A stretch of DNA of 64,000 nucleotides from Candidatus Aenigmatarchaeota archaeon (GTDB lineage Archaea; Aenigmatarchaeota; Aenigmatarchaeia; GW2011-AR5; JACRAC01): assembly GCA_016187395.1 (NCBI GenBank), contig JACPJV010000039.1, positions 5,663 through 69,662 of the forward strand, read 5' to 3'. The notes under the pieces are model-generated. The model saw only the letters and a program-made list of their open reading frames with translations. It had not been told where the DNA came from and did no database searches. The position numbers and the translations under genes are program-made. Of this stretch, positions 18,917-42,716 are shown one piece after another. How positions within the stretch are numbered: position 1 is the first letter of the stretch; each line of letters opens with the position of its first letter.

Positions 18917-18983
18917 ATGTACAACAAACAGCCTGCACTTTACTCCATCCGCGGCATCAACTGCAGCGGGGAGGGGCTGTGAA
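18917..18983 (+). repeat. junction repeat J (diverged copy)
   Basis: Reads in frame as ...QPALYSIRGINCSGEGL*, compared with ...ELVLYSIRGRNRNGEGR* in other copies. Ends directly against the stop of the ATPase gene at 18984. Confidence 0.7.
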
Positions 18984-20402: not shown

Positions 20403-20425
20403 AAGTAGTATACTTTACTATCAAC

Positions 20426-20433
20426 TATTTAAA
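20426..20433 (-). promoter_or_regulatory. TATA box (TTTAAATA on minus strand)
   Basis: Lies 24 nt upstream of the ATG at 20402. The same CTTTAAATA box with the same spacing is found upstream of the 27351 and 25691 genes. Confidence 0.5.
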
Positions 20434-20437
20434 GCTT

Positions 20438-20452
20438 GGGAGGGGCGGTGAG
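20438..20452 (+). repeat. junction repeat J (terminal 15 nt only, GGGAGGGGCGGTGAG)
   Basis: Identical to the ends of the J copies at 25021-25035 and 28966-28980. Confidence 0.6.
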
Positions 20453-20454
20453 AT

Positions 20455-20475
20455 TGGGCAGGCGCCTTAGGAAAC
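20455..20475. repeat. 21-bp direct repeat, right copy
   Basis: Exact match to 16700-16720. Confidence 0.9.
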
Positions 20476-20516
20476 CTTTAAAACTTATCGGCTTCTAACT
20501 AATTAGGTTCGATTTC

Positions 20517-22139: not shown

Positions 22140-22195
22140 TGTCCTCCATATCCTTCGCTGGATAAAGCCAGCGGCTTCCCTGGGAGGACAGCATC

Positions 22196-22250
22196 GCAAA
22201 AGAAAGCCATATTATTCATCCTCTATCTAAAGATGGAGGCTTTCTTTTGC
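22196..22250. repeat. 13-bp-stem hairpin related to family F1 (possible bidirectional terminator)
   Basis: GCAAAAGAAAGCC...GGCTTTCTTTTGC followed by TTGTAATCAGG. The same TACAAGCAAAAGAAAGCC string occurs at 61725-61742. Lies between convergent genes. Confidence 0.5.
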
Positions 22251-22256
22251 TTGTAA

Positions 22257-23207: not shown

Positions 23208-23243
23208 AAATGTATGTAACAATAAATGATAAATAGTTTTAAT

Positions 23244-23307
23244 GCCGCCGACGGCAACGAACTTGTGCTTTATTCTGTGAGAGGCAGAAACTGCAACGGG
23301 GAGGGGC
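23244..23307 (+). repeat. junction repeat J (3' 64 nt)
   Basis: Reads AADGNELVLYSVRGRNCNGEGP*. Differs from other copies mainly by synonymous changes. Confidence 0.8.
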
Positions 23308-23317
23308 CTTAGGCAAA

Positions 23318-24616
23318 TCATTTTGCTGCCAGCAGCCACTTCCAGAGGGGGATGAATGTGATATTGTAACTTCTGCCTTTATGCTTCACTTTTCTGCCGC
23401 CTTCTTTCTCTTCTGTTATGACAAGCCCTTCCCTCAATTTGCATTTTTTCATGGCTTCTAACAGACCTTTGACCTCGCGCTCTTCATTCTCCTTTATCTG
23501 GTAGGAAACCTGTATAGCCGTAACCTTTCGCCCCTCCTTTACCAGAAAGTCGCATTCCTGCCTGCCTTTGAAATAATAGATTTCTTTCCCTCTGTTGAGC
23601 AATGAAAGAAAAACTAGGTTTTCATACAGTTTCCCTATGTTGTCCAAAAATCTGAAGCTTACTGTATTTATGAGGCCGGAATCAATCCCATAGACCTTTC
23701 TCGGATTCACTTCCTGCTCTTTCAGGGAATATGAAAATTTCGGGACGAAAAACACCAGGCAGGCATCTGTCATATACAGCGAGAACCTTTCTACACTGTC
23801 CAGACTCAAGCCCGCAAACCTGGCAATTCTTCTGTACGAGATGGGAGATGAAAAATTTGTCAGGTAGTATTTGGCCAACGCCTTGAGTTTTCCCGTGTTT
23901 CTTATTCTGCGGCGCTCTGCGATATCTCTTCCCACTATATCGTCAAAATACCTTTCAAGTATTTCCTTTTTTTCGCCCTTTAATGCAACGAGAGGAAAAC
24001 CGCCGTATTCCATGTATTCTCTCAGAAGCTGCTTAATCTGAATTTTTCTGGAAAGCAAATCAAGCTTGCCTCCCAGCCGCAGTCCCTTAAAACGAAGGAA
24101 TTCCCTGAAATCCAGCGGGTATATTCTCATATCTACCCACCTTCCTGTGAGCAGGGTTCCGAATTCTTTGCTGAGCAATTTGGAAGTGGAACCAGAAATT
24201 AAAATACGCGCTTCCTTCTTTTCATGCAAAGCCCTCACAAACTTTTCCCATTTCGGGATACTTTGTATCTCATCCAGCAAGATGTAGGGAATGCCTTTCG
24301 GCTTCACTATTTCCATATAAGACTCATAAATCTGCTGCAGAAATTCCAAAGAGAGCATATCTGCAAATTTTGGTTCTTCGAAGTTTACATACAAAAAAGA
24401 TGTTCTGCCTTCACCTCTGCCAATATGCCGTTTTATGAACTGTTTCATTAAAGTGGATTTCCCGCTCCTTCGCACACCTGTTATTGCAATAACCTGGTCT
24501 GTGCGCACGAGTCTGTCCAGCTTGCTCAGGTATTCTTCTCTGGATATTCCAGTTTCATGGTCATCTTCCCAGAAATTCCAGCCGCTTAATACCTCTACAA
24601 TTTTTTCATTTTCCAT
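23318..24616 (-). CDS. AAA+ ATPase, AAA_14/DUF4143 type (COG1373-like)
   Basis: Walker A GVRRSGKST and Walker B ILLDEIQ. C-terminal QECDFLV...AIQVSY block. A TATA (TTATATA) lies 22 nt upstream of the ATG. Confidence 0.85.
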   Translation of the reverse strand: MENEKIVEVLSGWNFWEDDHETGISREEYLSKLDRLVRTDQVIAITGVRRSGKSTLMKQFIKRHIGRGEGRTSFLYVNFEEPKFADMLSLEFLQQIYESYMEIVKPKGIPYILLDEIQSIPKWEKFVRALHEKKEARILISGSTSKLLSKEFGTLLTGRWVDMRIYPLDFREFLRFKGLRLGGKLDLLSRKIQIKQLLREYMEYGGFPLVALKGEKKEILERYFDDIVGRDIAERRRIRNTGKLKALAKYYLTNFSSPISYRRIARFAGLSLDSVERFSLYMTDACLVFFVPKFSYSLKEQEVNPRKVYGIDSGLINTVSFRFLDNIGKLYENLVFLSLLNRGKEIYYFKGRQECDFLVKEGRKVTAIQVSYQIKENEEREVKGLLEAMKKCKLREGLVITEEKEGGRKVKHKGRSYNITFIPLWKWLLAAK

Positions 24617-24673
24617 AGGAAAATAAGTTTATCAAAGTATATAAGCTTATCGGTCATTTTCATGCCTTTTTGA

Positions 24674-25034
24674 CCGACATATTTAATAGGATGCCCAGTC
24701 CAATGCCTCGAAGTCTGCCCGTGCGATGTTCTGCCCGGAGAGATGCAGAATCTTCGCGCCAGAAGAAACGGCCGCAATGTCGAATTGTACTGGCCTACCG
24801 AGCCGCTTTCACAGGAATATGGCATAGACAGGGAGGTGAACGCCACACGCGCATCTGCTGACCAGAGCTTCAACCCGGCACGCGTAAACACGACAAGCGG
24901 CTTACAGTATACGGATGCCGGCGTTGCCGGCGACGGCAACGAGCTTGTGCTTTATTCTGTTAGGGGCAGAAAGGCGAATGGACGTTTGCCGCAGCAAACG
25001 TCAGTCTGCACTTCGCAACGGGGAGGGGCGGTGA
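24674..25034 (+). pseudogene. 3' fragment of an Fn3-like surface-protein gene (longest J copy), disrupted by hairpin element E
   Basis: Open from the stop at 24671. Encodes ...LPGEMQNLRARRNGRNVELYWPTEPLSQEYGIDREVNATRASADQSFNPARVNTTSGLQYTDAGVAGDGNELVLYSVRG (Fn3-like pattern). A 45-nt insert then shifts the frame before the conserved NGEGR* end. Confidence 0.6.
24970..25014. repeat. hairpin element E (GGCGAATGGAC...GTCAGTCTGC)
   Basis: 45 nt replace the GAACT found at the same place in intact J copies. It forms a long imperfect hairpin around GTTTGCCGCAGCAAAC. Confidence 0.75.
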
Positions 25035-25442
25035 CTACTTCGGTTCTGAGAGTTCTTTGGTTGCATAAACTTTGATAATATTTTGCTCTTTCAGCTTCTT
25101 GTCATTTGACCATATTGCGCAGCGGAGTTTCAATGCGAGCGCGAAGTAATGGACATCATCGGGATCAGGACATACAGATTCAGCTTGTTCAAAATATTCT
25201 ATGAATTCGCTGGAAGGGACTGATGTTATACTCGCTCTTATCATGAGCTCGGTAAAAAGATCCCTAACCTTTTCTTCTGAAAGACCCGTTTTTTCAGTGA
25301 TGACGTCCAGATTGTTCATAAGTTCCTCAAAAAGAAATTCAGGGATGTAGAAAGTCCAGCTGCTGCTCAAAATGAGATGGCGCGTATGGCTGTCTCTTAT
25401 CAATGCTGCGAAAAGTACGTTCGCATCGAGAACAAGATCCAT
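25035..25442 (-). CDS. vapC: PIN-domain toxin
   Basis: The MDLVLDANVLFAAL N-terminus and conserved acidic residues. Paralog of 60709-61152. Confidence 0.85.
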   Translation of the reverse strand: MDLVLDANVLFAALIRDSHTRHLILSSSWTFYIPEFLFEELMNNLDVITEKTGLSEEKVRDLFTELMIRASITSVPSSEFIEYFEQAESVCPDPDDVHYFALALKLRCAIWSNDKKLKEQNIIKVYATKELSEPK

Positions 25443-25691
25443 TTATCTCATCTCTTTGTATCTTTTTGCCAGCGCCTTATTAACCTTTCTGCCGAGTTCA
25501 ATTGCGTCTTCTTCGGTCAGTTTGCTCTCTGCGAGAAGCCTATCCATCTTCTTTAAGAGAATGACCCTCTCCCGGATTGCCTGCCTAGCTACTTCTGACC
25601 AGTTTAGCTCAGGATGTCTGTCCATTTCTTCTTTCAGCTCTTCCGGTACAGACAGAGTTATGCTTACCACAAAATCACCTATCACGTTCAT
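25443..25691 (-). CDS. vapB: antitoxin partner of PIN toxin
   Basis: 82 aa, abuts the PIN gene. Shares SKLTEEDA-ELGRKVN---A-(R/K)Y with 60436-60699. TATA TTTAAATA lies 29 nt upstream. Confidence 0.75.
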   Translation of the reverse strand: MNVIGDFVVSITLSVPEELKEEMDRHPELNWSEVARQAIRERVILLKKMDRLLAESKLTEEDAIELGRKVNKALAKRYKEMR

Positions 25692-25742
25692 TGTGTTTAA
25701 TATGTTTAATACGTGAACATATTTAAAGGTTGCGTTTCAACT

Positions 25743-25859
25743 CAGTTAGAGGCAGGGAGGCGAATGGACTGCGAGTGAGTAGACACTTTCTGCAGAAAGT
25801 GTCATTTGCCTCCGCTGCAGGAATGTCAGTCTGCATTCTGCAGCGGAGAGGGGCGGTAG
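25743..25859 (+). repeat. junction repeat J (short) carrying nested hairpin element E
   Basis: CAGTTAGAGGCAG, then an 89-nt E insert (25756-25844), then GGAGAGGGGCGGTAG. Confidence 0.7.
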
Positions 25860-25865
25860 GCTGAT

Positions 25866-25964
25866 TATATAGCAAACCAACTTGCTATATGGCGTTTATT
25901 AAGTTGGTTTGCTATATGGGAAAGCACAAATGACATGTTCCGTTTCATTTGTGGTTTCACTATA
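25866..25964. repeat. family F1 hairpin modules (two)
   Basis: TATATAGCAAACCAAC...GTTGGTTTGCTATAT and GCACAAATGA...TCATTTGTGGTTTCACTATA. The last heptamer contains the stop codon of the ATPase gene. Confidence 0.8.
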
Positions 25965-27351
25965 GCTTCATCGCCTTCTCCAGATCTTTCAGGTCAAAGC
26001 AATATGCTTTCTTCCCTTCGACTTTTGTTATTCTCTTTCTGAATGACTTTGCAAAAACAGCATAGATTTCTTTTCTCCTGTCGTTGTGCCATTTTACATA
26101 TTTGGCTTTCTCGCTCAGCATGGAAGCAATTTTTTCAGCGTTTACACCGTCCTTCCACTTGCATTCGCAGAACAAGATTTTCATTTTGTTTTCATCAAGC
26201 GCTACTATGTCTATTTCCCTGTCCTTGTGCCACCATCTGCCAATTTTTGTGGTTTCCATGATATTGAGCCTGGGTACCAATGACGCGACGAATGATTCGA
26301 ATTTTCTGCCTACATATTCCCCGCTCCTTTTCTTTATTTCATCCAGAACGGCATCAACATCCCCTCTTTCCAGCTGTTGTTTATTGAGGTATACAAATCT
26401 GAGCCAGAAATCAAAAAAATTATCCTTTAAAGCATATGAACCTCTCGCCTTTAGCTTGCTTTTATAGCTCTCGGTGATTATTTTTCTTTTTTCCAGAATC
26501 CCGAGTTTTTCCAGAATGAAAAGATATTTTGAAAGAAGGCTTTTGTCCAATTGCGTTTTTGAATGAATTTCGCCGGATGTCGCAGCCCCACCGGCGATGG
26601 CGGAAATTATTGACATATAATTCGACGGGTCTCTCAGCTCTTCTCTCAGAAGAATTTCCACCTCCTCGTATAAAAATTCGCCTTTGCTTAGAATCCTTTC
26701 CCTTACATTTTTCCACAGGCCGATTTTCGGAGAAAACTTTACCAGGTAACCTGGAATCATATCAAGAAAGGAATATACGAAAACCAGTTCTTCCATGGCG
26801 TATCCGGGGAAAAATTCCTTCAGATAGGTCACGTCCAGCTTATCGACCTGCCACTGGCCGGTTCTCCTGCCGTACAGAGGGCTTCTGTAGCTCAGGGCAT
26901 ATTTTTCCATCATACTGACTGACGAGCCTGACAGTATCATCATGAGTTTCGTGCCTTTGAAAGCCGAATCCCATTTGTCCTGCAGAACTGATATTATTTC
27001 CGGTGATCTCTCAATCAGGAAAGGAAACTCGTCAAAAATCAGCACAAGCCTCGATGCCGCCTTTTCAGCGAGGTAATCGAATATGCCATCCCAGCTCAGC
27101 AAAGGGGAGGTAAGAAGCCTCGCGTCCCCGAAAAATTCTACCAGCAGGTTATTAAACCTTCGCAGCGTGTCAGATTTTGATTCTAAACGTCCCAGAAAAT
27201 ACAGCATATTCTTGCCTTCAGAAAAATGCATAAGCAACTCTGTCTTCCCTATCCTCCGCCGCCCGTAAAGTATGACAAGTTCCGCCTTTCCGGAGCGGTA
27301 TTTCCTATTCAGGAAATTTAGTTCGTCGTCTCTATCAAAAAAATGCATCAT
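25960..27351 (-). CDS. archaeal AAA+ ATPase with C-terminal DUF234/PD-(D/E)xK-like domain
   Basis: Walker A GRRRIGKT. Start moved to ATG 27351 (MMHFFDRDDE) by alignment with the paralog at 18984-20402 and by TATA spacing. The C-terminal about 95 aa are nearly identical to that paralog. Confidence 0.85.
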   Translation of the reverse strand: MMHFFDRDDELNFLNRKYRSGKAELVILYGRRRIGKTELLMHFSEGKNMLYFLGRLESKSDTLRRFNNLLVEFFGDARLLTSPLLSWDGIFDYLAEKAASRLVLIFDEFPFLIERSPEIISVLQDKWDSAFKGTKLMMILSGSSVSMMEKYALSYRSPLYGRRTGQWQVDKLDVTYLKEFFPGYAMEELVFVYSFLDMIPGYLVKFSPKIGLWKNVRERILSKGEFLYEEVEILLREELRDPSNYMSIISAIAGGAATSGEIHSKTQLDKSLLSKYLFILEKLGILEKRKIITESYKSKLKARGSYALKDNFFDFWLRFVYLNKQQLERGDVDAVLDEIKKRSGEYVGRKFESFVASLVPRLNIMETTKIGRWWHKDREIDIVALDENKMKILFCECKWKDGVNAEKIASMLSEKAKYVKWHNDRRKEIYAVFAKSFRKRITKVEGKKAYCFDLKDLEKAMKL

Positions 27352-27373
27352 GAGTATATACTTATACTTCAAC

Positions 27374-27381
27374 TATTTAAA
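27374..27381 (-). promoter_or_regulatory. TATA box (TTTAAATA on minus strand)
   Basis: Lies 23 nt upstream of ATG 27351. The surrounding sequence TCAACTATTTAAAG is shared with 20421-20434. Confidence 0.5.
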
Positions 27382-27395
27382 GTTTTGCTTGGAGG

Positions 27396-27540
27396 CGCAT
27401 CCGCAGACAGAAGATTCAACCCGGCGCGCGCAAACACGACAAGCGGGCTGAGCTATACTGACGCCGGCGTCGCCGCCGACGGCAACGAGCTTGTGCTTTA
27501 TTCTGTTAGGGGCAGGAACTGCAACGGGGAAGGGAATTAG
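27396..27540 (+). repeat. junction repeat J (145 nt)
   Basis: Reads ASADRRFNPARANTTSGLSYTDAGVAADGNELVLYSVRGRNCNGEGN*. Its stop overlaps the stop of the convergent ATPase gene. Confidence 0.85.
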
Positions 27541-28784
27541 GCAGCAAGCAACCATTTCCACAGAGGCATGAACTTCACCTTGGCTTTTATTCCGAACCAC
27601 TTTACCTGTTTTTGCGCTTCATAGTCCTCTGTTATGATAACCAGATTTCTGCATTTGAGTTCTTTCCCCGCTTTTACAAGCGCCCTGACTTCCCTGTTCC
27701 TCGTCTTTATATCGCTGACGTCGCAGCAGACCTGAATCAGCTGCTTTACCTTGATACCTTTCTTTACAACAAAGTCGACTTCCTCCTGCTGCGGATTTTT
27801 CCAGTAATAAATCCTTGCAATGCCGTTCATTTCACGCTTTTTGAGCTCGATTGCAACGGCATTTTCATACAGCCTTCCCGTATCAGGGCTCAGCCTGAAA
27901 GCTTTTGCATAGACAAATCCGTTGTCGATGCAGTATATTTTCTTGCTGAAAGCTATCTGCTCTTTTACCTTTGGTGAAAATCTTTCTATCCTGAAGAAAA
28001 TAAAGGCTTCTTCCAGATAGTTCAGGTACCTCTCCACTGTATGAACGCTTTTGCATTTCGCGATTTTGCTCAGCGTGTTGTAGGAAAACTCCCTTGCTAT
28101 ATTGGAAACAAGATAAGCGGCAAGGTCCTCAATAGCGCGTACAGACCTTATCCTGTATCTTTTCACTATGTCTTTAAAGATTATGGAGCTGAACAGGGTT
28201 GAGAGATAATCCATGTGATCCAGTTTTTTAACCAGAGGTTCCGGATAGCCGCCGTGAGTAATGTAAAAAACCAACCTTTCCTTTATTTCGCTTTTCGTCA
28301 ATTCCCTGTTCTCAAGCATGAGAAATTCCTGAAAAGAAAACGGGAAGATGTTTATAAGGGTGTGCCTGCCAGTCAGATGCGTCGCCATCTCCCTGCTGAG
28401 CAGCTTTGAATTGCTCCCGGTAATAACAAGATTGTACCCCTGCCTCTGCAGCCTGTTTGCAAACAGTTCCCACTTGTCTATATTCTGAATCTCATCGAGC
28501 AGAAGGCATTTCGGAGCCTTATATATAGAGTTTAGCGCATCGATTATTTCATCATAATTTTTCACTTCCACAAGTTTTTCGTCATCAAAATTGGCGTACC
28601 CAAAAACTCCAAATCTGTTCAGTGCATGGGTGGCAAAAAATGATTTACCTGACCTTCTCGGTCCTATAATCACCTTTATCATAGTGCTGTCCAAGTTTTT
28701 GATATTCACGTTTCTTTCTACATAGCTTTCTTGCAGCTTTTTTTCAAGCTCCCTTTTCTGAATAAGCAGTATATCCCTCAGCAT
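27537..28784 (-). CDS. AAA+ ATPase, AAA_14/DUF4143 type (COG1373-like)
   Basis: Walker A GPRRSGKS and Walker B LLLDEIQ. C-terminal EEVDFVV...LIQVCC. Shares the C-terminal PLWKWLLAA with 23318-24616. Confidence 0.85.
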   Translation of the reverse strand: MLRDILLIQKRELEKKLQESYVERNVNIKNLDSTMIKVIIGPRRSGKSFFATHALNRFGVFGYANFDDEKLVEVKNYDEIIDALNSIYKAPKCLLLDEIQNIDKWELFANRLQRQGYNLVITGSNSKLLSREMATHLTGRHTLINIFPFSFQEFLMLENRELTKSEIKERLVFYITHGGYPEPLVKKLDHMDYLSTLFSSIIFKDIVKRYRIRSVRAIEDLAAYLVSNIAREFSYNTLSKIAKCKSVHTVERYLNYLEEAFIFFRIERFSPKVKEQIAFSKKIYCIDNGFVYAKAFRLSPDTGRLYENAVAIELKKREMNGIARIYYWKNPQQEEVDFVVKKGIKVKQLIQVCCDVSDIKTRNREVRALVKAGKELKCRNLVIITEDYEAQKQVKWFGIKAKVKFMPLWKWLLAA

Positions 28785-28845
28785 GGTTTATCATAGTGCA
28801 CAAAAGTATATAAATTTATGCATTATGAATCTTATGCATCAGCAG

Positions 28846-28979
28846 ACAGGAGCTTCAACCCGGCACGTGTAAATACGACAAGCGGACTTACTTATACTGA
28901 TGCTGTTGTCGTAGCCGACGGCAACGAGCTTGTGCTTTATTCTATCCGCGGCAGGAACCGCAACGGGGAGGGGCGGTGA
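28846..28979 (+). repeat. junction repeat J (134 nt)
   Basis: Reads ASADRSFNPARVNTTSGLTYTDAVVVADGNELVLYSIRGRNRNGEGR*. Confidence 0.85.
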
Positions 28980-28983
28980 GGAT

Positions 28984-29080
28984 TATAGTCATGCAAGAAA
29001 GAAATTAGTATTATATTTTCTTGCTGACTATATGTGAACCAAATAGTATAATATCCTGATTATTTATTTGGTTCACTATA
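28984..29080. repeat. family F1 hairpin modules (two)
   Basis: TATAGTCATGCAAGAAA...TTTCTTGCTGACTATA, followed by TGTGAACCAAATA...TATTTGGTTCACTATA. Confidence 0.8.
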
Positions 29081-29112
29081 AGACAGATGTCTTGAAATTA
29101 GCGAAGCAAAGG

Positions 29113-29142
29113 TATATAAACTTGAGTTGATATATATCAACT
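29113..29142 (+). promoter_or_regulatory. TATA box plus 18-bp perfect palindrome (candidate operator)
   Basis: TATATAAA at 29113-29120. AGTTGATATATATCAACT at 29125-29142, between the TATA box and the ATG at 29152. Confidence 0.5.
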
Positions 29143-29151
29143 GTGGTTTAG

Positions 29152-29691
29152 ATGTATAAACTGAAGTTGACAATATTGCAGCAGGAAATACTGCGTTTTC
29201 TCTTCATGAATGCCGGGAAATCGTTTAATGCGCGGGCCGTAGCAATCGGCCTTGAGGTTAGCCAAACAGCCGTCGCAAAAGCACTGCCAACACTGGAAAA
29301 ACAGGGGTTTTTGCATGTTACGAAGGACAAGAAATCAAAAAGAACGTCGATTGAATTAAACAGGGAAAACCACGCTGTCATAGGCATGAAAAGAGCTGAC
29401 AACCTCAGGCAGATATACGAATCAGGGCTTGATGAGTTTCTACGGGAAAGATTTCCGGGCTGCACTATTATCCTATTTGGCAGCTTCGCCAAAGGAGAGG
29501 ATACGTACTTATCTGACATTGACATCGCTATAATCGGTGCCAAAGGCAAATCTCTTGACATGAGCAGTTTCGAAAAATCGCTTGCTAAAGAGATAAGGAT
29601 TAGTTTCTATGAGTCTTTCAGAAAAATAGGCGATGAGCTCAGGAATAATATTATTGGAGGGATTCTCTTATCAGGGTGGATTGAATTATGA
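29152..29691 (+). CDS. wHTH-fused minimal nucleotidyltransferase (MNT)
   Basis: N-terminal wHTH-like segment, then the NTase motif GSFAKGEDTYLSDIDIAI (G-S...D-x-D). Overlaps the downstream HEPN gene by 4 nt. Confidence 0.8.
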   Translation: MYKLKLTILQQEILRFLFMNAGKSFNARAVAIGLEVSQTAVAKALPTLEKQGFLHVTKDKKSKRTSIELNRENHAVIGMKRADNLRQIYESGLDEFLRERFPGCTIILFGSFAKGEDTYLSDIDIAIIGAKGKSLDMSSFEKSLAKEIRISFYESFRKIGDELRNNIIGGILLSGWIEL

Positions 29692-30137
29692 TGCCTCTCA
29701 AAACATTCCGCGAATATCTGGCTGAAGGCACTGCAAGGAGACAGTCCCCTGACAAACTCAGGGCCAGATCGCTTATTGCCGGATCTGAGGACTCCTATAA
29801 AGTCCTTCTTTCATTTGCCGAAAAGATGGGTCTGGACGACAGCAATGCGAACCACATCATCAAGAATGCTTACGACATAATCATGGAGCTTATACGGGCA
29901 AAGATGTTTTCAGACGGATTTGCCACGACAGGAAAGGGCGCGCATGAAGCTGAAGTTTCGTACATGGCTGAAATAGGCTTTAGCGGCAGGGATGTGGAAT
30001 TTGCAAACGACGTGCGCTATTTCAGAAATGGAATCATGTACTATGGGAAAAGGTTTGACAAAGAATATGCGGAAAAGGTTCTGGGATTTTTAAAAATGAT
30101 TTATCCTGCGCTGAAGAAAATGTGCGAGCAAAAATGA
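29688..30137 (+). CDS. HEPN-domain protein (partner of MNT)
   Basis: All-helical 149 aa. ATGA overlap with the MNT gene. The motif region reads DVRYFRNGIMYYG. Confidence 0.7.
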   Translation: MMPLKTFREYLAEGTARRQSPDKLRARSLIAGSEDSYKVLLSFAEKMGLDDSNANHIIKNAYDIIMELIRAKMFSDGFATTGKGAHEAEVSYMAEIGFSGRDVEFANDVRYFRNGIMYYGKRFDKEYAEKVLGFLKMIYPALKKMCEQK

Positions 30138-30230
30138 AAGAGGCAGGGAGGTGAATGGACTGACGAGTAATTAATATCAATATTTTCTCTCGTCAGTCAA
30201 TCTGCATCCTGCAGCTGGAAGGGGCGTTAG
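30138..30230 (+). repeat. junction repeat J (short) carrying hairpin element E
   Basis: AAAGAGGCAG, then the E insert (30147-30215, GGAGGTGAATGGACTGACGAG...CTCGTCAGTCAATCTGC), then GGAAGGGGCGTTAG. Its stop overlaps the HxlR gene stop. Confidence 0.7.
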
Positions 30231-30571
30231 AAGAGAGGGCACGCGGTGCATCTGCGGGTTTTGCAACCAAGATTCTCGTAATATGAAGTCCATTCTTTTA
30301 GTGCGTCAAGGATTTTTAGGAATTCCGTTCCTCTTTCCGTCAGATAATACTCTGAATTTTTGCTGCCGGGCTTTCTTGTCCTTTTCAGGATCCCTTCGTT
30401 TTCCATGTCCCTTAGTTTTTTTGAAAGTACTTTCGGACTTATCCTGCATGTGCGCTTTAGCGTGTTGAATCTAGAACCTTTGCTTAAATGAATCTCCTGT
30501 ATGATTCCAAGGCTTCGTTTGCTGCCTGCGATTCTGGCGGCACGAAAGACCGGGCACGTGAGATTTTTCAT
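30227..30571 (-). CDS. HxlR-family winged-helix transcriptional regulator
   Basis: CPV...I-GSKRSL-II-----G--RFN-L------IS-KVLS-KLRDME-EGIL-R pattern over 114 aa. Confidence 0.85.
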   Translation of the reverse strand: MKNLTCPVFRAARIAGSKRSLGIIQEIHLSKGSRFNTLKRTCRISPKVLSKKLRDMENEGILKRTRKPGSKNSEYYLTERGTEFLKILDALKEWTSYYENLGCKTRRCTACPLF

Positions 30572-30715: not shown

Positions 30716-31390
30716 ATGATTCCGCTATTAGCTATGGGTAGGCATATTAACACAAAGCCTCACATAAGTTCTTACATTCTGGGAGCAGCTGTTCTGGTTA
30801 TCTTTATATCAGCGCTTGGCATATTTGATTACGCTATAACTGGTTTTGCCACGGCGACGCAGAGCACGGGTTCTAACGTAACTATTTCAGGGTATATCGC
30901 CATAGCGCTTTCCACAAACTTGAGCAGGGGAATAGAATTCGGCACGATAACCCTGCTGCCGGCGAACCAGACGAATGCAACGGCAAGCTACCAGAACTAT
31001 ACAGGCGGGGGAGGGCCTGGCGGAGGGCTGAATTATACCCTGTACAACGCTTCTGTCTCAACAGACTCAAACCAGAACGTGGACTTCTGCGTAAAAGGCA
31101 GCGGGCCTTTTGCGACCTCAGGAGGCGCCAATTCGTTCGCGCTGGCAAACCTGACGTGGTACGACAACAAAACAATAAACAACGACACGCACCCGCCAGG
31201 CGGGCCTTTCAGGGGCTTTTTCGGAATATCTGCGACTACGAGCTATGTGAAGGGAGAAGTTGCTGTCAGCGCAGGCAATGAGAACAACTACAGGTTCTGG
31301 CTCAACGTAAGCGGAGGGCAGGCAGCAGGCGATTACAATACAACAATATCGTTCCGCGGCACTACTGCCGGAGACGCGTGCGGGTCGTAA
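30716..31390 (+). CDS. secreted pilin-like glycoprotein A1
   Basis: N-terminal hydrophobic segment. Blocks ITGFATATQST, IALSTNLSRGIEFGTITLLPANQTNATA and YRFWLNVSGGQAAGDYNTTISFR. Conserved C-terminal GDACGS. Paralog of 32133-32798. Confidence 0.75.
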   Translation: MIPLLAMGRHINTKPHISSYILGAAVLVIFISALGIFDYAITGFATATQSTGSNVTISGYIAIALSTNLSRGIEFGTITLLPANQTNATASYQNYTGGGGPGGGLNYTLYNASVSTDSNQNVDFCVKGSGPFATSGGANSFALANLTWYDNKTINNDTHPPGGPFRGFFGISATTSYVKGEVAVSAGNENNYRFWLNVSGGQAAGDYNTTISFRGTTAGDACGS

Positions 31391-31403
31391 AACAAATAGA
31401 AAT

Positions 31404-32090
31404 ATGAGGCGTCTTAGAGGTGGATGGATGAAAGCAAATAGGGGAAAATGTGCGGATTCAAGTCACTCTTTATTGCTACTGCTTCTGATGTTTTTAATTA
31501 TTACAGTGTTTAATTCTTTTCCAGCATACGCTGAAAGAGGCGTGGGCATAAAATGGTACACTGAAGCGGAGATTATGAAGGAAGAAACAACAAGGTGCCT
31601 GAACTACGGAATATACAGTCCGTGGAGCGAGTACGTGAACGCCATTTTAAGGGCTTCTGATGAATTCTCTCCTGTTGTCGCAGAACAGACAAGCGAGCCG
31701 GTTTTTGTGGCGGCAGGCACTTCCAGCTCAGACGCGCTTCATTCTGACCTGTGTTTTAAAATGGGGGATGTTTACGATGAGAACTGCCTTCTCGGGCCTT
31801 TGCTGTGCGAAAGGACGTGCCCTCAAGAGAGATTTGAATACGCAGGCCAGGTCATAGTCGAGGAGGCGCCGAGGGACGCAGAGCTGAGAGGGACCGGCTC
31901 GGGCACGACATTCGGCGTTGCAGCTCCGCTGAGGCTTATAGTAGACTGCCAGAATCTGCAAAGAGATTATACGCCGCTTTTGTTCGTAGGAGGGATCGTA
32001 GGAGGTGTGGCGACCGCTGTTGCAGTCAAAAGGCACCGCTCGCACGGGAAGAAAGGCAGGAAGAAATATCACTTTGTGATTAAGATATAA
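31404..32090 (+). CDS. signal-peptide protein B1 with C-terminal TM and basic tail
   Basis: Blocks GVGIKWYTE, YGIYSPW, YAGQVIVEEAP and VAAPLRLIVDC. C-terminus is TPLLFVGGIVGGVATAVAV plus KRHRSHGKKGRKK. Paralog of 32826-33521. Confidence 0.75.
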   Translation: MRRLRGGWMKANRGKCADSSHSLLLLLLMFLIITVFNSFPAYAERGVGIKWYTEAEIMKEETTRCLNYGIYSPWSEYVNAILRASDEFSPVVAEQTSEPVFVAAGTSSSDALHSDLCFKMGDVYDENCLLGPLLCERTCPQERFEYAGQVIVEEAPRDAELRGTGSGTTFGVAAPLRLIVDCQNLQRDYTPLLFVGGIVGGVATAVAVKRHRSHGKKGRKKYHFVIKI

Positions 32091-32132
32091 CTCTCGCAAT
32101 CTTTATTTACAGAATAAAACCAGTATTCACAC

Positions 32133-32798
32133 ATGACCTCACCGGCTATGGACAGAAACGCATCCGCAAAACCACATGTAAGAATTTACGCGATGGGTGT
32201 ATCGGTCATGCTGATCATGGTATCCGCAATTGGCGTATTGAACTACACAATAACAGGGTTTGCGAGCGCAACGCAAAGCACGAATACGAATGTCACGATA
32301 GCAGCTGCCATATCCATAGCGCTGTCCACAAACTTGAGCAAGGGAATAGAATTCGGCACGATAACCCTGCTGCCGGCAAACCAGACGAATGCAACGGCAA
32401 ACTACGCAAACACAACCGGAGGCGGGGGGCCGGGCGACCTGAACATCACGCTGTATAACGTTACGCTGTCCAGCGATTCGACTGAGAATGCGGACTTCTG
32501 CGTAAGGGCAAACGGCGATATGTGCACGTCAGCCTGCTCAAGCCGCATAGGAATCGCAAATATAACATGGGCAGCTAACACGACAAACAATCTCACTCAT
32601 CCGCCAACAGGCGTTTTCCGCGCGCTTTTTGGAAGAAGCATGGCAACGGGCTTTGACAAGGGAGATATCAACCTGGCCCCTGGAGGGGTGACTCACTACA
32701 GATTCTGGCTCAACGTCAGCGGCGCACAGGCGGCAGGAGATTACAACAACACCGTAGACTTCCGGGCTGTGTCTACAGGCGACGCGTGCGGCTCATAG
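32133..32798 (+). CDS. secreted pilin-like glycoprotein A2
   Basis: Colinear with A1 and has the same C-terminal GDACGS. Confidence 0.75.
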   Translation: MTSPAMDRNASAKPHVRIYAMGVSVMLIMVSAIGVLNYTITGFASATQSTNTNVTIAAAISIALSTNLSKGIEFGTITLLPANQTNATANYANTTGGGGPGDLNITLYNVTLSSDSTENADFCVRANGDMCTSACSSRIGIANITWAANTTNNLTHPPTGVFRALFGRSMATGFDKGDINLAPGGVTHYRFWLNVSGAQAAGDYNNTVDFRAVSTGDACGS

Positions 32799-32825
32799 AG
32801 AGGTGAATGCAAGAAAAGAAGATCG

Positions 32826-33521
32826 GTGATTAATGTGAAAATGATTGAAGAAAAGGAAATGAGAGGAATGAATAGAAAAGGGAATGCAGCCGTGCATGCC
32901 CTGTCAAAATCAGGCAGCCTGCTTGTTATTGCAGTTCTTGCATTCGCGTTCCTCATGCCTCCTGCCCATGCAGAAAAAGGTGTTGGCCTGAAATGGTTTA
33001 CAGAGAACGAGAATGTTGCAGAGGAGAGCATGCACTGCATAGACTATGGCATCTACAACCCATGGAATACCGACGTAAATGCTGTTCTGAAGGTTTCTGG
33101 TGAATTTTTGCAGGTTGCAGAGATGAAGAAAAGCGAACCTGTTTTCGTTAAGGCAGCCACTGCAAGCTCTGCTGCGCTGCCGTCCAGAATCTGCTTCAGA
33201 ATAGGCGACACCTATGAAGAAGAATGCCTGATAGGCAACTGGTTTTGCGACAGGACATGTCCAAAGGAGCAGCGTGAATATGCAGGGCAGGTCGTAGTCG
33301 AGGAAGCTCCGGAAGAAAGCACTGTGGGTGGCACAGGCGCCATGGTCACGTTCAGCGTTGCCGCGCCGCTGCGGCTTGTCGTGGAATGCAGGGATGAAAA
33401 ACGCGACTTAACGCCGCTTTATTATATTGGCGGCATCGCAACAGGTACGGTGATGTTCACGGTTGCGAAGAAATACGATCCTGAAAAAAAGCGGAGAAAG
33501 TCTCGTACCGTGATACAGTGA
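32826..33521 (+). CDS. signal-peptide protein B2 with C-terminal TM and basic tail (true start probably ATG 32841-32868)
   Basis: Colinear with B1. The track start is GTG. Confidence 0.7.
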   Translation: MINVKMIEEKEMRGMNRKGNAAVHALSKSGSLLVIAVLAFAFLMPPAHAEKGVGLKWFTENENVAEESMHCIDYGIYNPWNTDVNAVLKVSGEFLQVAEMKKSEPVFVKAATASSAALPSRICFRIGDTYEEECLIGNWFCDRTCPKEQREYAGQVVVEEAPEESTVGGTGAMVTFSVAAPLRLVVECRDEKRDLTPLYYIGGIATGTVMFTVAKKYDPEKKRRKSRTVIQ

Positions 33522-33540
33522 GCAGGGAAGTATCATACCC

Positions 33541-33915
33541 TGGTTTACAAGCAGGAACGAAGTTCCTGCTGTACATGGAAAACTGAAAGTTTTCCAGTAC
33601 TGATGAACCTTTGGTTCATCATGTACAGAATGAGCTTTGCTCATTCTTGTATTCCTTGCATCACTATGACATGCTTCTGATATGAACCACCGCATAAATG
33701 CGGTGGTTTCTTGAAGCATGGCATGCCAAAGAAGTTCGATATCTTATCCTCTGCTTATCTGTGAAGAACCGAAGGTTCTTCAAGACCTCAAAGAAGCTTT
33801 GCTTCTTTGCAGGAAAGCAGAGGTTTTAGAACTTCTTTGAGCATAAAGATATGATGCACAAAGAACTTCGTTCATTATAGTGAATCAATGAAATGACCCC
33901 GACAAGATTTCATTG
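33541..33915. repeat. composite hairpin repeat cluster (family F1, largest)
   Basis: Four tandem perfect hairpins, then ATTCCTTGCATCACTATG, further hairpins including the GCAGGAAAGCAGAGGTTTTAGA module, and a final TATAGTGAATCAATGAAAT...ATTTCATTG. Confidence 0.85.
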
Positions 33916-33954
33916 CCCTTCAAATTTATACCACCCTTTTCCTTAATATATTTC

Positions 33955-36069
33955 ATGGCTGACGAGGATCGCTACATTACGCATATCCTGGTTTTATCCA
34001 TACTTTTCATGTCTGTGACAGCGGTATACTTTCAGGTTTATTCAGGACTCTCGTCTACAGAGTCTACGCGGGCTACTGTTTCCGTAGTAGGAATAGCCGA
34101 GAATGTGAGCGAGAATATAACGCCTTCTGCTCCTGCAAAACCCTCTGCTGAACCGGTTCCGGGCGGTGCCAGACCAAGAAAAATTCCGCAGCCAGAATTC
34201 CAGAAACCTCCGCTTGAGGCAGACCTAAGGCTCTACCCATCCTGCACAGAAATACCTATTAGCGTTGCAAAGCACAGCGATTTTGTAAAGCTGCTTAGCG
34301 CTGTACGTGAGCCGAACTCAACTGTAAACAGCAGCATATATTTCCAGGATTTTCTGAACGCGAGCTTTGCATACGAACAGTCCGGGAATGTTGTTGGAAA
34401 AGATGAAATAACGCTGATTGTTTTTGACCTTAAAGGCGCGAGGGACATAGGCTCTATCGTCCTGGAATTAGAAATTCCCCGTTCTCGAATCAGGGAATAC
34501 GGAATAGATCCTGATACGCTAACGCTTTTGCACAGATATCCAGACGGCAGCTGGAGAGCCAGCGCAGGTGTGCTGCAAAAAATCGGGGAAAATTCTACCG
34601 CTCTCAGATACCTGGTTAGGATGGAAAAGCAGGAGTTTCGTTCATCCTTGTTTGCCGTGAGCGGAGGCCCGAGACCCCTGCTGTGTCAGCTGTGCGAAAG
34701 CGAACCGTGGAGCCAGTGCGTGAAAGGACAGGAAACAAGATTATACAACGAATGCGGCGAACATACAAGCTTCGCATGCAGGCCCATGGCGCAGACAAGG
34801 CTGTGCGGAGTGGCGGTTGCCCAGCCAGTCGCACCCCCTCTAGAGCCAATAATTTTTGCAGCTGTGGCCATACTTGTCAGCCTGGCCTTTGTAATAAGAG
34901 CTGCAACAAGAAACAGAGAGCGCCAAAGACCTCTGTACCTGATTATGGCGGCAATTTTTATAACATTATCCGCCGTGTTTACCATAACAGCATACAGCAG
35001 CGTAGAGCCGACAGCGGACACAATATTCCTGCAACCTGAAAATATCATCGTGTCTGCCTTTGCTGTCACAGAGCAGGTGCAAAATCCGTCTGCAGCCATG
35101 ACCCCGTTGCTGCTGGAGGCAGTGACGCTGAAGCCGGACTTCCAATACATTCCTGAAGAGGATGCGTACAGCGTTATTGCAAGCTCCAACATAACCAGCC
35201 TATGCGGATATGGAAACGCAGAGGCTTATTATGTATATTCAAAAGACGGGGGGCAGCTGACTGAAAAGAGTGAAACCGTGTCAGCTGAAATACCTTCGAC
35301 ATTCTCGATGAATATAACCACCGTGAAGGCATGCGACAAAATATCCTATTCTGTTATTGTTATAGACAAAAATAAACTGCCGGTATACGGAGGCCGCATT
35401 GATGCAGCAGCTCCATGCGAAGCCGAGACTCTGGAGATCGAGGCGGAATTGTTCATACCGGTTGACGGCCCTTCAGGGGAATTTTACGAAGCAGCTAATA
35501 TTTCAGAAAGGGCGCCGTTCAGAATCAAGGCAGGGAATTTCCTGGGATCTGACATGACCGTTATAAACAGAGGCGCTGCAAAGCCCGTGCAGCTTGAGCT
35601 GGAGTATGGGATAGCGGACCTGCAGAATAATTCTATCGTGTTTGTGCGCGAAAATATCACGCTAGACGAAAGGCTGGAGCTGCGCAGAAAAATACGCGTT
35701 CCGCCAGAAACGAAAGAAGGATTCTACTCCTTCTACGCCATGCTATTTGACCTGACAGGAAGGCGGAGAGCGGATACGTCAGAGATAATCTACGTATATG
35801 TCGTGGCAGTTCCAGGACCTGCATTCCCGCAGGACATCATCCTGATATTCATGCTATACGTGATACTTTTGCTCATACTGTTTTTTGCCTACTACAATAG
35901 AGACAGGTGCTATATATGCAAAAAAACGGGCGTTCAGAGGTGCAGTGTGTGCAGGAAATACGTCTGCAAGAGGCATCTGGTCAAGAAAAAGGAATTTTAT
36001 TGCATCAGGCATTCAGAGCCGGCATCAGACAAAGGGAGAAAGCCAGGCATTTGGAATTGGAAAATTTAG
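33955..36069 (+). CDS. multi-pass membrane protein with extracellular domains, TSP1-like Cys motif and C-terminal zinc ribbon
   Basis: ATG at 33955. TM segments lie near aa 20-40, 310-330, 345-365 and 625-650. Contains CQLCESEPWSQC...CG...AC...C. C-terminal CYICKKTGVQRCSVCRKYVCKRH...YCIRH. Confidence 0.7.
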   Translation: MADEDRYITHILVLSILFMSVTAVYFQVYSGLSSTESTRATVSVVGIAENVSENITPSAPAKPSAEPVPGGARPRKIPQPEFQKPPLEADLRLYPSCTEIPISVAKHSDFVKLLSAVREPNSTVNSSIYFQDFLNASFAYEQSGNVVGKDEITLIVFDLKGARDIGSIVLELEIPRSRIREYGIDPDTLTLLHRYPDGSWRASAGVLQKIGENSTALRYLVRMEKQEFRSSLFAVSGGPRPLLCQLCESEPWSQCVKGQETRLYNECGEHTSFACRPMAQTRLCGVAVAQPVAPPLEPIIFAAVAILVSLAFVIRAATRNRERQRPLYLIMAAIFITLSAVFTITAYSSVEPTADTIFLQPENIIVSAFAVTEQVQNPSAAMTPLLLEAVTLKPDFQYIPEEDAYSVIASSNITSLCGYGNAEAYYVYSKDGGQLTEKSETVSAEIPSTFSMNITTVKACDKISYSVIVIDKNKLPVYGGRIDAAAPCEAETLEIEAELFIPVDGPSGEFYEAANISERAPFRIKAGNFLGSDMTVINRGAAKPVQLELEYGIADLQNNSIVFVRENITLDERLELRRKIRVPPETKEGFYSFYAMLFDLTGRRRADTSEIIYVYVVAVPGPAFPQDIILIFMLYVILLLILFFAYYNRDRCYICKKTGVQRCSVCRKYVCKRHLVKKKEFYCIRHSEPASDKGRKPGIWNWKI

Positions 36070-37673: not shown

Positions 37674-39620
37674 ATGAAATACCATTATCTGGCGTTACTT
37701 GCGTTTCTAATTGCAGCTGGGATTTCTTATGCTTCGCATATAGAGGTTCCTGCAGGATTTGCATCGCCTGACGCTATTTCGTACCCTGCTAACGTACAAG
37801 TACCTGCAAGCGGGTCTGCTTCTCTCACCATAAACATAGATCACGATATCGTATGGGGGAATGTTTATTATCTTGATGACGGAAGATGGATTCCGTATCA
37901 GCTAAGCGGCACGTTTATAGGAAGCACAGACTGGATTGAAGGCCCTGCTACAACAACTATAAGCATACCTTCAAGCGCGTTAAGCGATCAAAATAATCTT
38001 ATTATTATAACTTACGGCTGTGACGGATCATTTACGGCAGGATGGTCGTGCAGCAGCGCAGACGGCGACCCTGCATGGGAAGTACTGATTATTCCGATAT
38101 CGACGCAGCCTGCTGTGCCACCGCTGCCATCAGGAGCTATATGCGGAGATGATGTCTGCGAATTAGGCGAGGATGAAAACAGCTGCCCTGCTGATTGTGC
38201 ATCAGGATCAATCACAGAACCTATACCAGAAGGCTGGCCCACTTTCCTGCACGACGACCAGAGGACAGGCGTGGCTGACGGCGACGGGCCGCAGCAAGGA
38301 ACGGTAGCGTGGACAAAAGCAGGCGAAGTGCTGGCACGGGATAGCACCGGTGCGCCTACAAAAACCAAATATTTCGGGGATGAAGGGGTTTTGGCTGCAG
38401 ATGCTGGCAGGGTCTACGTGCATACAACGGTGTGGCAAAGGGGCGATCACTGGGATTATATTACAGCTTTGAATCCGGCAACAGGCGCGATGAAATGGGA
38501 ATACCGGATGCCTTTGTGCACAGACGGTTTCGCGGACAGACGCAGCGACAAAACTACAAATGTGCGCGATATAATCCTGGAAGGCGGAACGCTCTATGTG
38601 CCGCAGGACGGGGCTAAGTGCGGTTTTGATTACGGAACATTTACATCAGACGCGATGACCGGCTCAGGCGGAGGATTTATTGTGCTGGGCGCGGAAACAG
38701 GTTCCCTTGAAAGGACTCTCCACAAAACAGAATACAAGTTCTATGATGTGCCTTCGTCTGCAGAGAATATTATAGTATCAGGCAACAGAATCTATTATTA
38801 TTCGCAAAAGGACTATCTGGTTGCTTTAGATTCTTTCACAGGCGCAATCATATTCAAGACCCCGATTGCTAATCTTGGAGAGGGCGGCTCAATATCTTCC
38901 CTTTCTTTGTCCCCTGACGGCATACTGTATGCCAACGGCGTAAAAGAAGAAGTTGTGGGTGAGGATGAGGTACGCAAGAGCTATATTATAGGCTTTGACA
39001 CAACAACAGGGGCAAAGGTATTTGAGAAGACCTTCGAGTTGACTGAAGCGGGAAGGATATCGGCACCGCTTGTGATAGATGGCGACTATCTCTACGCCAA
39101 AGCCGGAGAAAGATCAACATTTGCGGCTGGAAGCGGTCCTGGAAGCGAGCTGGTGAGGATTAACAGGAAAGACGGGACTTCTTCAATAGTCTATTCTGAC
39201 CAGAAATACACGCTTTTCTTTGTGGGGCCTGACGGCACAAGCTATGGCATGGGAAGCAATGCGAGGATTGGGCCAAAGAAGACTGCCGGCAACAGGGCAA
39301 TCTACCGCTATCAGAGCGGAGACACAGACGCATATATCGGAGTGGGGGACGCGGGCAAGATAGTGTGGGTTGCTGGCGCTCCATCCGGCGATGAGGTTGG
39401 TGTGGTTGCCGCAGCAGACGCGATATTCGACACAAGAGACGCCAGCGGTGGCACGGGCATAGATAAAACTGAATTTTATAGTTATAGCCCGATGGACAGC
39501 ACTTTTGGGTGGAAACTAATGCAAGACGGAGAATTTGATATTGCCTTTGCATCGAACGGCGCGCTTTACGTGACTAATAACGAGGAAGGCGAAGGCAGGA
39601 CGCTGACAGCCATAAAGTAG
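37674..39620 (+). CDS. secreted PQQ-like beta-propeller repeat protein
   Basis: Signal peptide, a Cys knot CGDDVCELGEDENSCPADC, and a WPTFLHDDQRTG entry motif typical of PQQ-like propellers, followed by repeated strands. Confidence 0.7.
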   Translation: MKYHYLALLAFLIAAGISYASHIEVPAGFASPDAISYPANVQVPASGSASLTINIDHDIVWGNVYYLDDGRWIPYQLSGTFIGSTDWIEGPATTTISIPSSALSDQNNLIIITYGCDGSFTAGWSCSSADGDPAWEVLIIPISTQPAVPPLPSGAICGDDVCELGEDENSCPADCASGSITEPIPEGWPTFLHDDQRTGVADGDGPQQGTVAWTKAGEVLARDSTGAPTKTKYFGDEGVLAADAGRVYVHTTVWQRGDHWDYITALNPATGAMKWEYRMPLCTDGFADRRSDKTTNVRDIILEGGTLYVPQDGAKCGFDYGTFTSDAMTGSGGGFIVLGAETGSLERTLHKTEYKFYDVPSSAENIIVSGNRIYYYSQKDYLVALDSFTGAIIFKTPIANLGEGGSISSLSLSPDGILYANGVKEEVVGEDEVRKSYIIGFDTTTGAKVFEKTFELTEAGRISAPLVIDGDYLYAKAGERSTFAAGSGPGSELVRINRKDGTSSIVYSDQKYTLFFVGPDGTSYGMGSNARIGPKKTAGNRAIYRYQSGDTDAYIGVGDAGKIVWVAGAPSGDEVGVVAAADAIFDTRDASGGTGIDKTEFYSYSPMDSTFGWKLMQDGEFDIAFASNGALYVTNNEEGEGRTLTAIK

Positions 39621-42661: not shown

Positions 42662-42716
42662 TCCAAATTGTTCCGACGGTGATAGCTTGCCCGTGTACCA
42701 TGACAAGAGTCCGGCG

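Follow-up and report, generated by a model that had tools for sequence, protein, structure and literature searches.

The 64,000-nt stretch of DNA analysed here (the window) comes from a Candidatus Aenigmarchaeota metagenome-assembled genome with HYW25_ locus tags. It carries, on the forward strand, a set of genes for a giant surface protein and for three smaller proteins, A, B and C, whose relatives lie together in other archaeal genomes. The giant is a secreted, adhesin-like protein of 2167 amino acids (aa) (10212-16715, from its translation and from matches to Pfam and an A-family profile). Its extreme C-terminus is a paralogue of A (16212-16712, delimited by BLASTP, profile and alignment), and we refer to this giant-borne domain as A-g. 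A block of ≈14 kb (16712-30571) separates the giant from A1 (30716-31390), whose open reading frame (ORF) is open upstream to a TTG at 30692 and which encodes a small stand-alone A protein (A-s). A1 is followed by B1 (31404-32090), which has a signal peptide, an immunoglobulin (Ig)-like ectodomain, a transmembrane (TM) helix and a basic cytoplasmic tail, then by second copies of both genes, A2 (32133-32798) and B2 (32826-33521), and finally by C (33913-36069; 718 aa, with an alternative ATG start at 33955), the fourth gene of the cassette. A preliminary description of the sequence had placed the ORFs of the giant, A1, B1, A2, B2 and the membrane protein C at the same positions.

That description read A1-B1-A2-B2 as a duplicated pair, and sequence comparison bears this out: the A copies are 59% identical at the protein level and the B copies 47-48%. 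The A1 and A2 DNAs share 74% identity across two blocks of 270 nt and 103 nt, spaced 1414 and 1408 nt apart, and the A-B repeat unit is ≈1.41 kb long. The spacing of these blocks implies a tandem duplication of the A-B unit. Moreover, the single B of the nearest relative is 57-59% identical to each B of the window, which exceeds the identity between B1 and B2 and implies that the duplication is old. The GenBank models of A2 (196 aa) and B1 (171 aa) start 3' of the signal or TM segments conserved in their families, and both starts are probably mis-called.

The giant opens with a signal peptide; a Laminin_G_3 domain occupies residues 932-1069 (Pfam E = 1.9e-20), and there are ≈18 propeller-like '...GFAYFGT...' repeats. 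Its translation contains no hydrophobic segment past the signal peptide, and it has no TM anchor. The proposed homology of its C-terminus to A lies far beyond chance: BLASTP aligned it to A2 with 36% identity over 165 aa (E = 3e-18), and the A-family profile matched giant residues 2001-2166 with E = 1e-37. By contrast, a second giant in the window (3181 aa; 50836-60381, reverse strand) lacks an A domain and carries, close to its C-terminus, a TM segment of its own and then a tail rich in Cys and Asp; its other domains are two Laminin_G_3 stretches, Big_13 and NPCBM_assoc. The difference between the two giants supports A-g as an attachment module, and it fits a role for A-g as a stand-in for a membrane anchor on the 2167-aa protein.

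Conservation of the cassette and two forms of the A domain

ORFs on the contigs of A and B homologues were scanned with A, B and C profiles. In every independent locus with enough flanking sequence (≈20), the order was a large protein ending in an A domain, A-s in one or two copies, B, and C, and the genes often abutted or overlapped. These loci come from Pacearchaeota, Woesearchaeota, Nanoarchaeota and Aenigmarchaeota. Typical lengths of the four products, in cassette order, are 1922, 194, 220 and 337 aa in locus L015; 2234, 202, 221 and 458 aa in L016; and 8193, 192, 207 and 462 aa in L008. Cassette giants encoded by complete genes ranged from ≈700 to >8000 aa and contained LamG, beta-propeller or beta-helix domains. 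The preliminary description allowed that A and B homologues might never be found together outside this genome; A, B and the membrane protein in fact recur in the same order in these ≈20 DPANN loci. The B profile retrieved 77 proteins, all of 134-234 aa and most of 200-230 aa, and every named homologue was assigned to Pacearchaeota, Nanoarchaeia, Aenigmarchaeota or an unclassified archaeon. Full-text literature searches found no published description of the four-gene cassette, which is DPANN-wide, judged by these profile matches, and built from undescribed protein families.

This pattern of conservation bears on whether the four proteins work together at all. They could instead be independent, co-transcribed proteins of the envelope or glycocalyx that share a common Ig-like domain and are not physically coupled. 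Such independence suits the putative nature of their interactions, the generic character of Ig-like folds and the modest Foldseek E-values reported below. It is harder to reconcile with a gene order that is invariant across four DPANN lineages despite protein identities of 30-40%, with the placement of A-g at the extreme C-terminus of anchorless giants, or with the invariant mature N-terminus of B (GVGIKW). We therefore regard independent action as improbable.

The A-domain profile matched 476 cluster representatives among 1.84 billion, 330 of them at E ≤1e-10. Stand-alone proteins of ≈200 aa accounted for 106 of the 154 A-domain proteins that were inspected. Another 44 carried the domain ≤12 residues from the C-terminus: ≈30 of these were large or fragmentary carriers (255-2495 aa) of otherwise unrelated architectures, and the other ≈14 were proteins of ≈290 aa with a cytoplasmic N-terminal extension, a TM segment and then the A domain. 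Two of the 154 had the domain at the N-terminus. Thus, in large proteins the A domain lies almost always at the extreme C-terminus.

Several variants were noted during this survey. Protein P0111 (698 aa) joins A straight to C in a natural fusion that lacks B. P0168 (1201 aa) starts with an A-s-type domain containing both Cys residues, followed by ≈1000 aa of repeat-rich sequence. In L019, from a Woesearchaeota genome, B is split into two short ORFs (9950-10648) by a frameshift or as a pseudogene; the cassette is otherwise intact and its giant is 2959 aa long. The variant cassette of L026 (2-9766; also L027) has cytoplasmic coiled coils on three of its proteins: one of 95 aa precedes the TM segment of A, and long ones form the tails of B and of one C paralogue. 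Additional small TM proteins and a coiled-coil protein of 145 aa are encoded there too, and a tyrosine integrase gene lies ≈2 kb downstream.

Column-by-column comparison of the alignments showed that A-g and A-s are two distinct, separately conserved subfamilies. A-s proteins are marked by Cys104 (in DFC; 98%) and a C-terminal Cys194 (91%), in profile numbering, which are Cys123 and Cys219 of A2, and both residues are absent from the giant-borne domains, which have Tyr or Trp at position 104 and terminate just ahead of the C-terminal Cys position. Residues typical of A-g include Glu124 (96%), Lys165 (92%) and Tyr104. Similarity between the two forms begins at about the NVTI segment, whereas the ITG motif and the 'T..TT.S' stretch that precedes NVTI are specific to A-s. 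On the evidence of these alignments, the separate signatures point to heterotypic, non-interchangeable roles for A-g and A-s.

Sequence features and predicted folds of A, B and C

A-s proteins begin with a short polar stretch, after which come a hydrophobic segment (≈19 aa) and a brief linker bearing a conserved [IVL]-T-G; in some homologues an AxA site lies just ahead of this motif. The linker leads into a 'T..TT.S-N-V-T-I' stretch and then a domain of ≈150 aa. A1 has the motif as ITG, and the A C-terminus is GDACGS. As first described, A is rich in N-glycosylation sequons and has this ending: the A proteins of the window contain 12-14 sequons and the B proteins none. Across the families, the median in A is 9 compared to 4 expected from composition, and B has about the expected number, roughly one. 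A sequon-rich A and a sequon-poor B fit an exposed position for A and a membrane-proximal, protein-contacting position for B.

The earlier remark that A and B belong to no nameable family stands, since neither gave a sequence match in Pfam, NCBIfam or PDB. A1 and A2 matched nothing in Pfam or NCBIfam, and the A-family profile found nothing relevant among PDB sequences, archaeal filament entries included. The only recurrent Pfam match of the A family was to DUF4402, in 4 of 86 members and below threshold (best E = 3e-3). A match to DUF7287 was fainter still (E = 0.23, below threshold), and a few A and C members gave faint, below-threshold matches to WxLIP_PGBD. Profile-profile comparison detected no relationship between A and B, and hhalign assigned a probability of 1.7% to a match between A and an alignment of the E. 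coli FimA, FimI, FimF, FimG and FimH pilin domains. Mean-field direct-coupling analysis of ≈146-201 A domains, aimed at a strand that might pair with the N-terminal segment, returned gap and alignment artefacts as top couplings and no strand ladders.

AlphaFold2 with family alignments yielded confident models of A2 and B2 as monomers. In the A2 model (mean predicted local distance difference test score, pLDDT, 85.5), a helix at residues 14-36 is followed by a beta-sandwich; model and alignment together show that the 15-20 aa between helix and domain, among which the conserved ITG lies, form a non-helical linker. The conserved S-x-V-x-I segment of A-s just C-terminal to ITG was not assigned to a strand in the monomer model. 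When the A2 model was compared with PDB by Foldseek, ≈38 of the top 50 matches were donor-strand pilins of chaperone-usher systems: CsuA/B (best, E = 1.9e-3), CfaB, CS17, FimA, Caf1, PapE/PapA, SafA and the pilin domain of PapG. Target-normalised template modelling scores reached 0.54, and no PDB match had E ≤1e-3. A viral structure library used as a control gave incoherent matches with a best E of 3.8e-3, similar to the PDB best. The small pilin-like beta-sandwich proposed for A is thus echoed by the identity of its top matches, weak as these are, and the modelled pilin-like fold is suggestive, not established.

We considered whether A could be an archaeal type IV pilin, in which the helix is kept after prepilin-peptidase cleavage, the head is Ig-like, and the machinery is encoded elsewhere. 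A hydrophobic helix (≈19-23 aa) at the N-terminus and a beta-sandwich behind it do resemble the archaeal pilin layout, and the faint DUF7287 match (E = 0.23) could be taken in the same sense. However, there is no conserved [KR]-[GA] cleavage motif ahead of the helix, and columns 1-8 of an alignment of 78 stand-alone A proteins contain no conserved Gly or Ala before the hydrophobic segment of the kind found in class III signal peptides. The ITG-containing, non-helical linker of 15-20 aa between helix and domain, and the presence of the A domain in giants without the helix and at the C-terminus, also argue against this assignment. The cassettes contain no gene for an ATPase, a PilC-like protein or a prepilin peptidase. 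A type IV pilin reading of A was rejected on signal-peptide anatomy, and we consider it very improbable overall.

A second possibility is that A belongs to the TasA superfamily (TasA, AbpA/AbpX, CanA and Saci_0406) and forms a chaperone-free donor-strand filament, with B and C merely co-regulated. These systems are all Sec-dependent, glycosylated beta-sandwich filaments of archaea, and many archaea reportedly have TasA-like proteins (bioRxiv 10.1101/2024.12.30.630787). Pyrodictium cannulae (9h8b) are among the structural matches of A2, at rank 42 with an E of about 0.1. In contrast, TasA, AbpA and the thread subunit fall outside the top 50, the TasA family model (PF12389, Peptidase_M73) matched 0 of 86 A proteins at E up to 1, and the A profile found no filament entry in PDB. 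No peptidase S26 or SipW-type gene was present among the neighbouring ORFs (≥150 aa) scanned in the window or in the gene tables of L001-L009 and L026-L027; L010-L024 were scanned with the A, B and C profiles only. The absence of a signal peptidase among neighbouring ORFs thus scanned, and the strict linkage of B and C to A, which argues for a functional tie, make a TasA-type filament unlikely in our estimation. Separately, the N-terminus of A (TGFA/TATQSTGSNVTISG) looks TasA-like by eye, and a TasA/SipW reading of it was rejected after neither a TasA nor a SipW-signal model matched.

B consists of a classical signal peptide, a single ectodomain, a TM helix and a cytoplasmic tail (median 28 aa) that is basic and conserved. 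Its mature N-terminus is almost invariant (A/GVGIKW..E, with both Gly residues at 100%; B1 has (E)RGVGIKW), and the ectodomain contains six conserved Cys residues. In the B2 model (mean pLDDT 86.8), a single Ig-like domain spans residues 54-187 and the TM helix residues 196-216. Foldseek returned 17 PDB matches at E ≤1e-3, mostly PapD-like, MSP or ASH domains, including a HYDIN-like protein (best, 7e-5), VAP/MSP domains and the Caf1M chaperone (2.9e-4); FimC (1.3e-3) and CEP192 (1.6e-3) were just beyond the cut-off. Complement MG domains were also among the structural matches, and the WxL-interacting protein of Enterococcus faecium (9i1y) was among the best (E = 2e-4). From the model, we take the B ectodomain to be probably one PapD/MSP-like Ig domain. 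At the sequence level, B ectodomains did not match the Pfam PapD, MSP or ASH families, hhalign gave a probability of 0.7% for B against FimC, and B found nothing in Pfam, NCBIfam or PDB even with deep family profiles.

The C-terminus of B had been described as a tripartite sorting signal with a 'TPL' motif. The motif is present in this lineage, and it does not extend to the family, in which the juxtamembrane consensus is R-[DN]-[YF]-[TS]-[LP]-x-Y with T at 64% and Pro at only 13%. The lineage-specific TPL and the long, conserved tail argue against a sortase-type signal, and the neighbouring window ORFs that were scanned (≥150 aa) contained no sortase or archaeosortase. We therefore abandoned the sorting signal, on the grounds of motif conservation and tail length. 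In the B family alignment, position 56 of B2, in the first strand, is Lys in 93% of members, and position 185, in the last strand, is Lys or Arg in 91%. This basic pair recalls Arg8 and Lys112, the pair that binds the pilin carboxylate in PapD-type chaperones, and we offer the resemblance as a lead only.

Typical C proteins (337-544 aa) start with a TM segment or signal and an N-terminal ectodomain; a Gly-rich linker connects this ectodomain to two Ig-like domains, behind which lie the C-terminal TM helix and its basic tail. As for A and B, neither phmmer nor profile searches of Pfam, NCBIfam and PDB gave any match above threshold. The Ig-like domains of C resembled HYDIN_VesB_CFA65-like_Ig (1.2e-5) and Cep192_D3 (3.7e-5) in 4 of 14 members, as well as other ASH-type families. 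The N-terminal ectodomain weakly resembles the Nup98 autopeptidase fold (7 of 14 members, best E = 2.4e-4, below the Pfam threshold; E = 0.09 to 0.9 against Nup116/Nup98 in PDB), and it also occurs within the giants of L011 (residues 279-412) and L017 (residues 1157-1281). The '...F.V..FS.Y' ending of this ectodomain recalls the HFS cleavage site (C homologues at L008 8635-10023, L009 3613-5070 and others).

The C of the window departs from this layout. It corresponds to two adjacent ORFs of the nearest relative fused into one protein, lacks the canonical N-terminal domain, and has a PGF-pre-PGF-like segment and two internal TM helices, followed by an Ig-like ectodomain (539-663), the C-terminal TM helix and a lineage-specific cytoplasmic Cys-rich zinc ribbon. 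The preliminary description had called this protein multi-pass and suggested that it could be an assembly component. The window C looks multi-pass because two ORFs of the nearest relative are joined in it, and the family as a whole has one N-terminal and one C-terminal TM segment with Ig-like ectodomains between them. Moreover, C gave no match to an usher, and the scan of window ORFs of ≥150 aa did not turn one up elsewhere. C is thus neither usher-like nor intrinsically multi-pass, and a multi-pass assembly channel is not supported.

A proposed model for adhesin display

Taking these results together, we tentatively favour a reading in which the locus is one copy of a DPANN four-gene adhesin-display cassette, with the A domain coupling anchorless giants to a base in the membrane. 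The giant, which has no membrane anchor of its own and ends in A-g, a paralogue of the small glycoprotein A-s, would be exported through Sec. The pilin-like beta-sandwiches of A-g and A-s would then associate, with edge or donor-strand pairing as the likeliest mode, and one to many copies of A-s would form an adaptor or short stalk. B and C, with their predicted cleaved signal peptides, PapD/ASH-type Ig ectodomains, C-terminal TM helices and conserved tails, would fix this assembly to the membrane. In addition, B may keep hold of A-s until it is assembled, much like a pilus chaperone but tethered to the membrane. The analysis shows the homologies, the domain layout, the conserved gene order, the predicted topologies and folds, and the contrast in sequons between A and B; we infer all the protein-protein contacts in this scheme, as well as any polymerisation and the processing of A-s at ITG.

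Several results weigh against such an assembly. By sequence, neither A nor B can be connected to any pilin or chaperone family; a pilin fold has weak support from Foldseek, comparable in E to the viral control; and PapD-like Ig folds are common and functionally diverse. The NVTI segment is partly kept in the giants and is thus no donor strand peculiar to A-s. The hydrophobic segment of A-s is long (median 19 aa, compared to 15 aa in B), and together with the 95-aa cytoplasmic coiled coil on A-s of one variant, this implies that A-s may stay anchored and never polymerise. The frequent overlap of the A and B genes suggests roughly equal amounts of the two proteins and no excess of a major pilin.

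Some of the same observations suit a simpler arrangement, in which no fibre forms and A-g is a C-terminal attachment tag that plugs, at ≈1:1, into a fixed complex of uncleaved A-s, B and C in the membrane. Besides the long hydrophobic segment of A-s, the cytoplasmic coiled-coil extensions on A, B and C in L026 imply a transmembrane complex, the A/B gene overlap suggests translational coupling, and both the natural A-C fusion (P0111) and the location of A-g at the extreme C-terminus of otherwise unrelated giants are in keeping with docking. However, many A-s proteins have signal-peptidase-typical AxA or [IVL]-T-G sites after the hydrophobic segment, A-s is heavily enriched in sequons, like an exposed shaft or coat protein, its best structural matches are polymerising pilins, and several cassettes contain two A-s paralogues, as in pilus operons. 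We judge a docking module without a fibre to be a lesser but serious possibility.

A more ambitious version of the adhesin-display model is a single-membrane archaeal counterpart of the chaperone-usher pathway. In it, a tethered B would act as chaperone or anchor and cap A-s, a donor-strand polymer of A-s would stand beneath the giant as tip adhesin, with A-g accepting the first strand, and the whole would be a DPANN-specific organelle for host attachment. We think this rather unlikely as a complete account. Chaperone-usher pili are the closest functional analogue of the cassette. As in FimH, PapG and CsuE, the C-terminal domain of the cassette adhesin copies the small subunit; the subunit is modelled as a small beta-sandwich, the adjacent gene encodes a protein with a predicted PapD-like Ig fold, and there are one to two subunit paralogues per operon. 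By contrast, no sequence homology was detectable (hhalign probabilities of 1.7% between A and Fim pilins and of 0.7% between B and FimC), and B has one Ig domain, a TM anchor and a cytoplasmic tail, unlike the two-domain periplasmic chaperones of the PapD family. The cassette has no usher and its host no outer membrane; its adhesin is encoded first and is 700 to >8000 aa long, its subunits are predicted to be heavily N-glycosylated, and its host is a DPANN archaeon. The cassette thus falls outside the chaperone-usher class by every criterion based on sequence, by the architecture of its chaperone-like protein and by its lack of an usher.

Other surface systems share different parts of the cassette. 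The threads of Sulfolobus (Saci_0406), the bundling pili of Pyrobaculum (AbpA) and the cannulae of Pyrodictium (CanA/CanX) likewise consist of glycosylated, Sec-exported beta-sandwich subunits on cells with a single membrane, and they assemble by donor-strand complementation. Archaeal filaments of non-type-IV kind have been described without a chaperone or usher in the gene neighbourhood (bioRxiv 10.1101/2024.12.30.630787, among other sources); homologues of AbpA, CanX and the thread subunit are reported mainly from Thermoproteota, and those of AbpX and TasA from several archaeal phyla (bioRxiv 10.1101/2024.12.30.630787). The DPANN cassette is not described in these accounts. Unlike these filaments, the cassette has a giant adhesin bearing the subunit domain, and it lacks any sequence link to them or Pfam TasA match.

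The C-terminal attachment domains of type IX secretion (T9SS), dockerin-cohesin and S-layer homology (SLH) systems provide a second comparison: as in those systems, a beta-sandwich of ≈150 aa ends unrelated large surface proteins and is encoded beside candidate receptors. Unlike them, A-g gave no sequence match or reported fold match to these domains, and a free-standing paralogue, A-s, which those systems are not known to have, is present in every cassette. Gram-positive loci for WxL and WxL-interacting proteins also combine small secreted proteins with a C-terminally TM-anchored Ig-fold protein; in contrast to them, the cassette encodes no WxL domain, its host has no peptidoglycan, and all sequence matches were below threshold.

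For the ultrasmall, episymbiotic DPANN archaea, whose mode of attachment to host cells is poorly understood, the cassette is a concrete candidate. It apparently mounts very large, highly variable surface adhesins with four types of protein, of which A and B belong to no described family. If A does act by strand complementation with a PapD-like protein at its side, the cassette would rank as the first filament or anchor system of archaea to include a dedicated chaperone-like component, and would represent a striking convergence with, or a deep relationship to, bacterial chaperone-usher pili. Even if A-g is only a docking tag, it would constitute a new C-terminal anchoring domain with 476 representative clusters and would give a rule for recognising DPANN surface adhesins in metagenomes.

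Intervening and flanking genes

In other genomes the cassette is contiguous, and the ≈14-kb block that parts the giant from A1 in the window looks like an insertion. It contains genes for an M11-like metallopeptidase (16712-18091, reverse strand), four AAA ATPases (18984-28784; ATPase_2 with DUF234 and HTH, and AAA_14 with DUF4143), a nucleotidyltransferase with a 149-aa partner (29152-30137), and an HxlR regulator.

The region downstream of the cassette is rich in envelope genes. Among its predicted surface proteins are a PQQ/BamB-like beta-propeller protein of 648 aa (37674-39620) and a 997-aa protein with a CARDB domain (42687-45680). Upstream of the giant, on the reverse strand (2776-6901), the window encodes a P-type cation ATPase of 875 aa and a Csm6-like CARF/HEPN protein of 482 aa.

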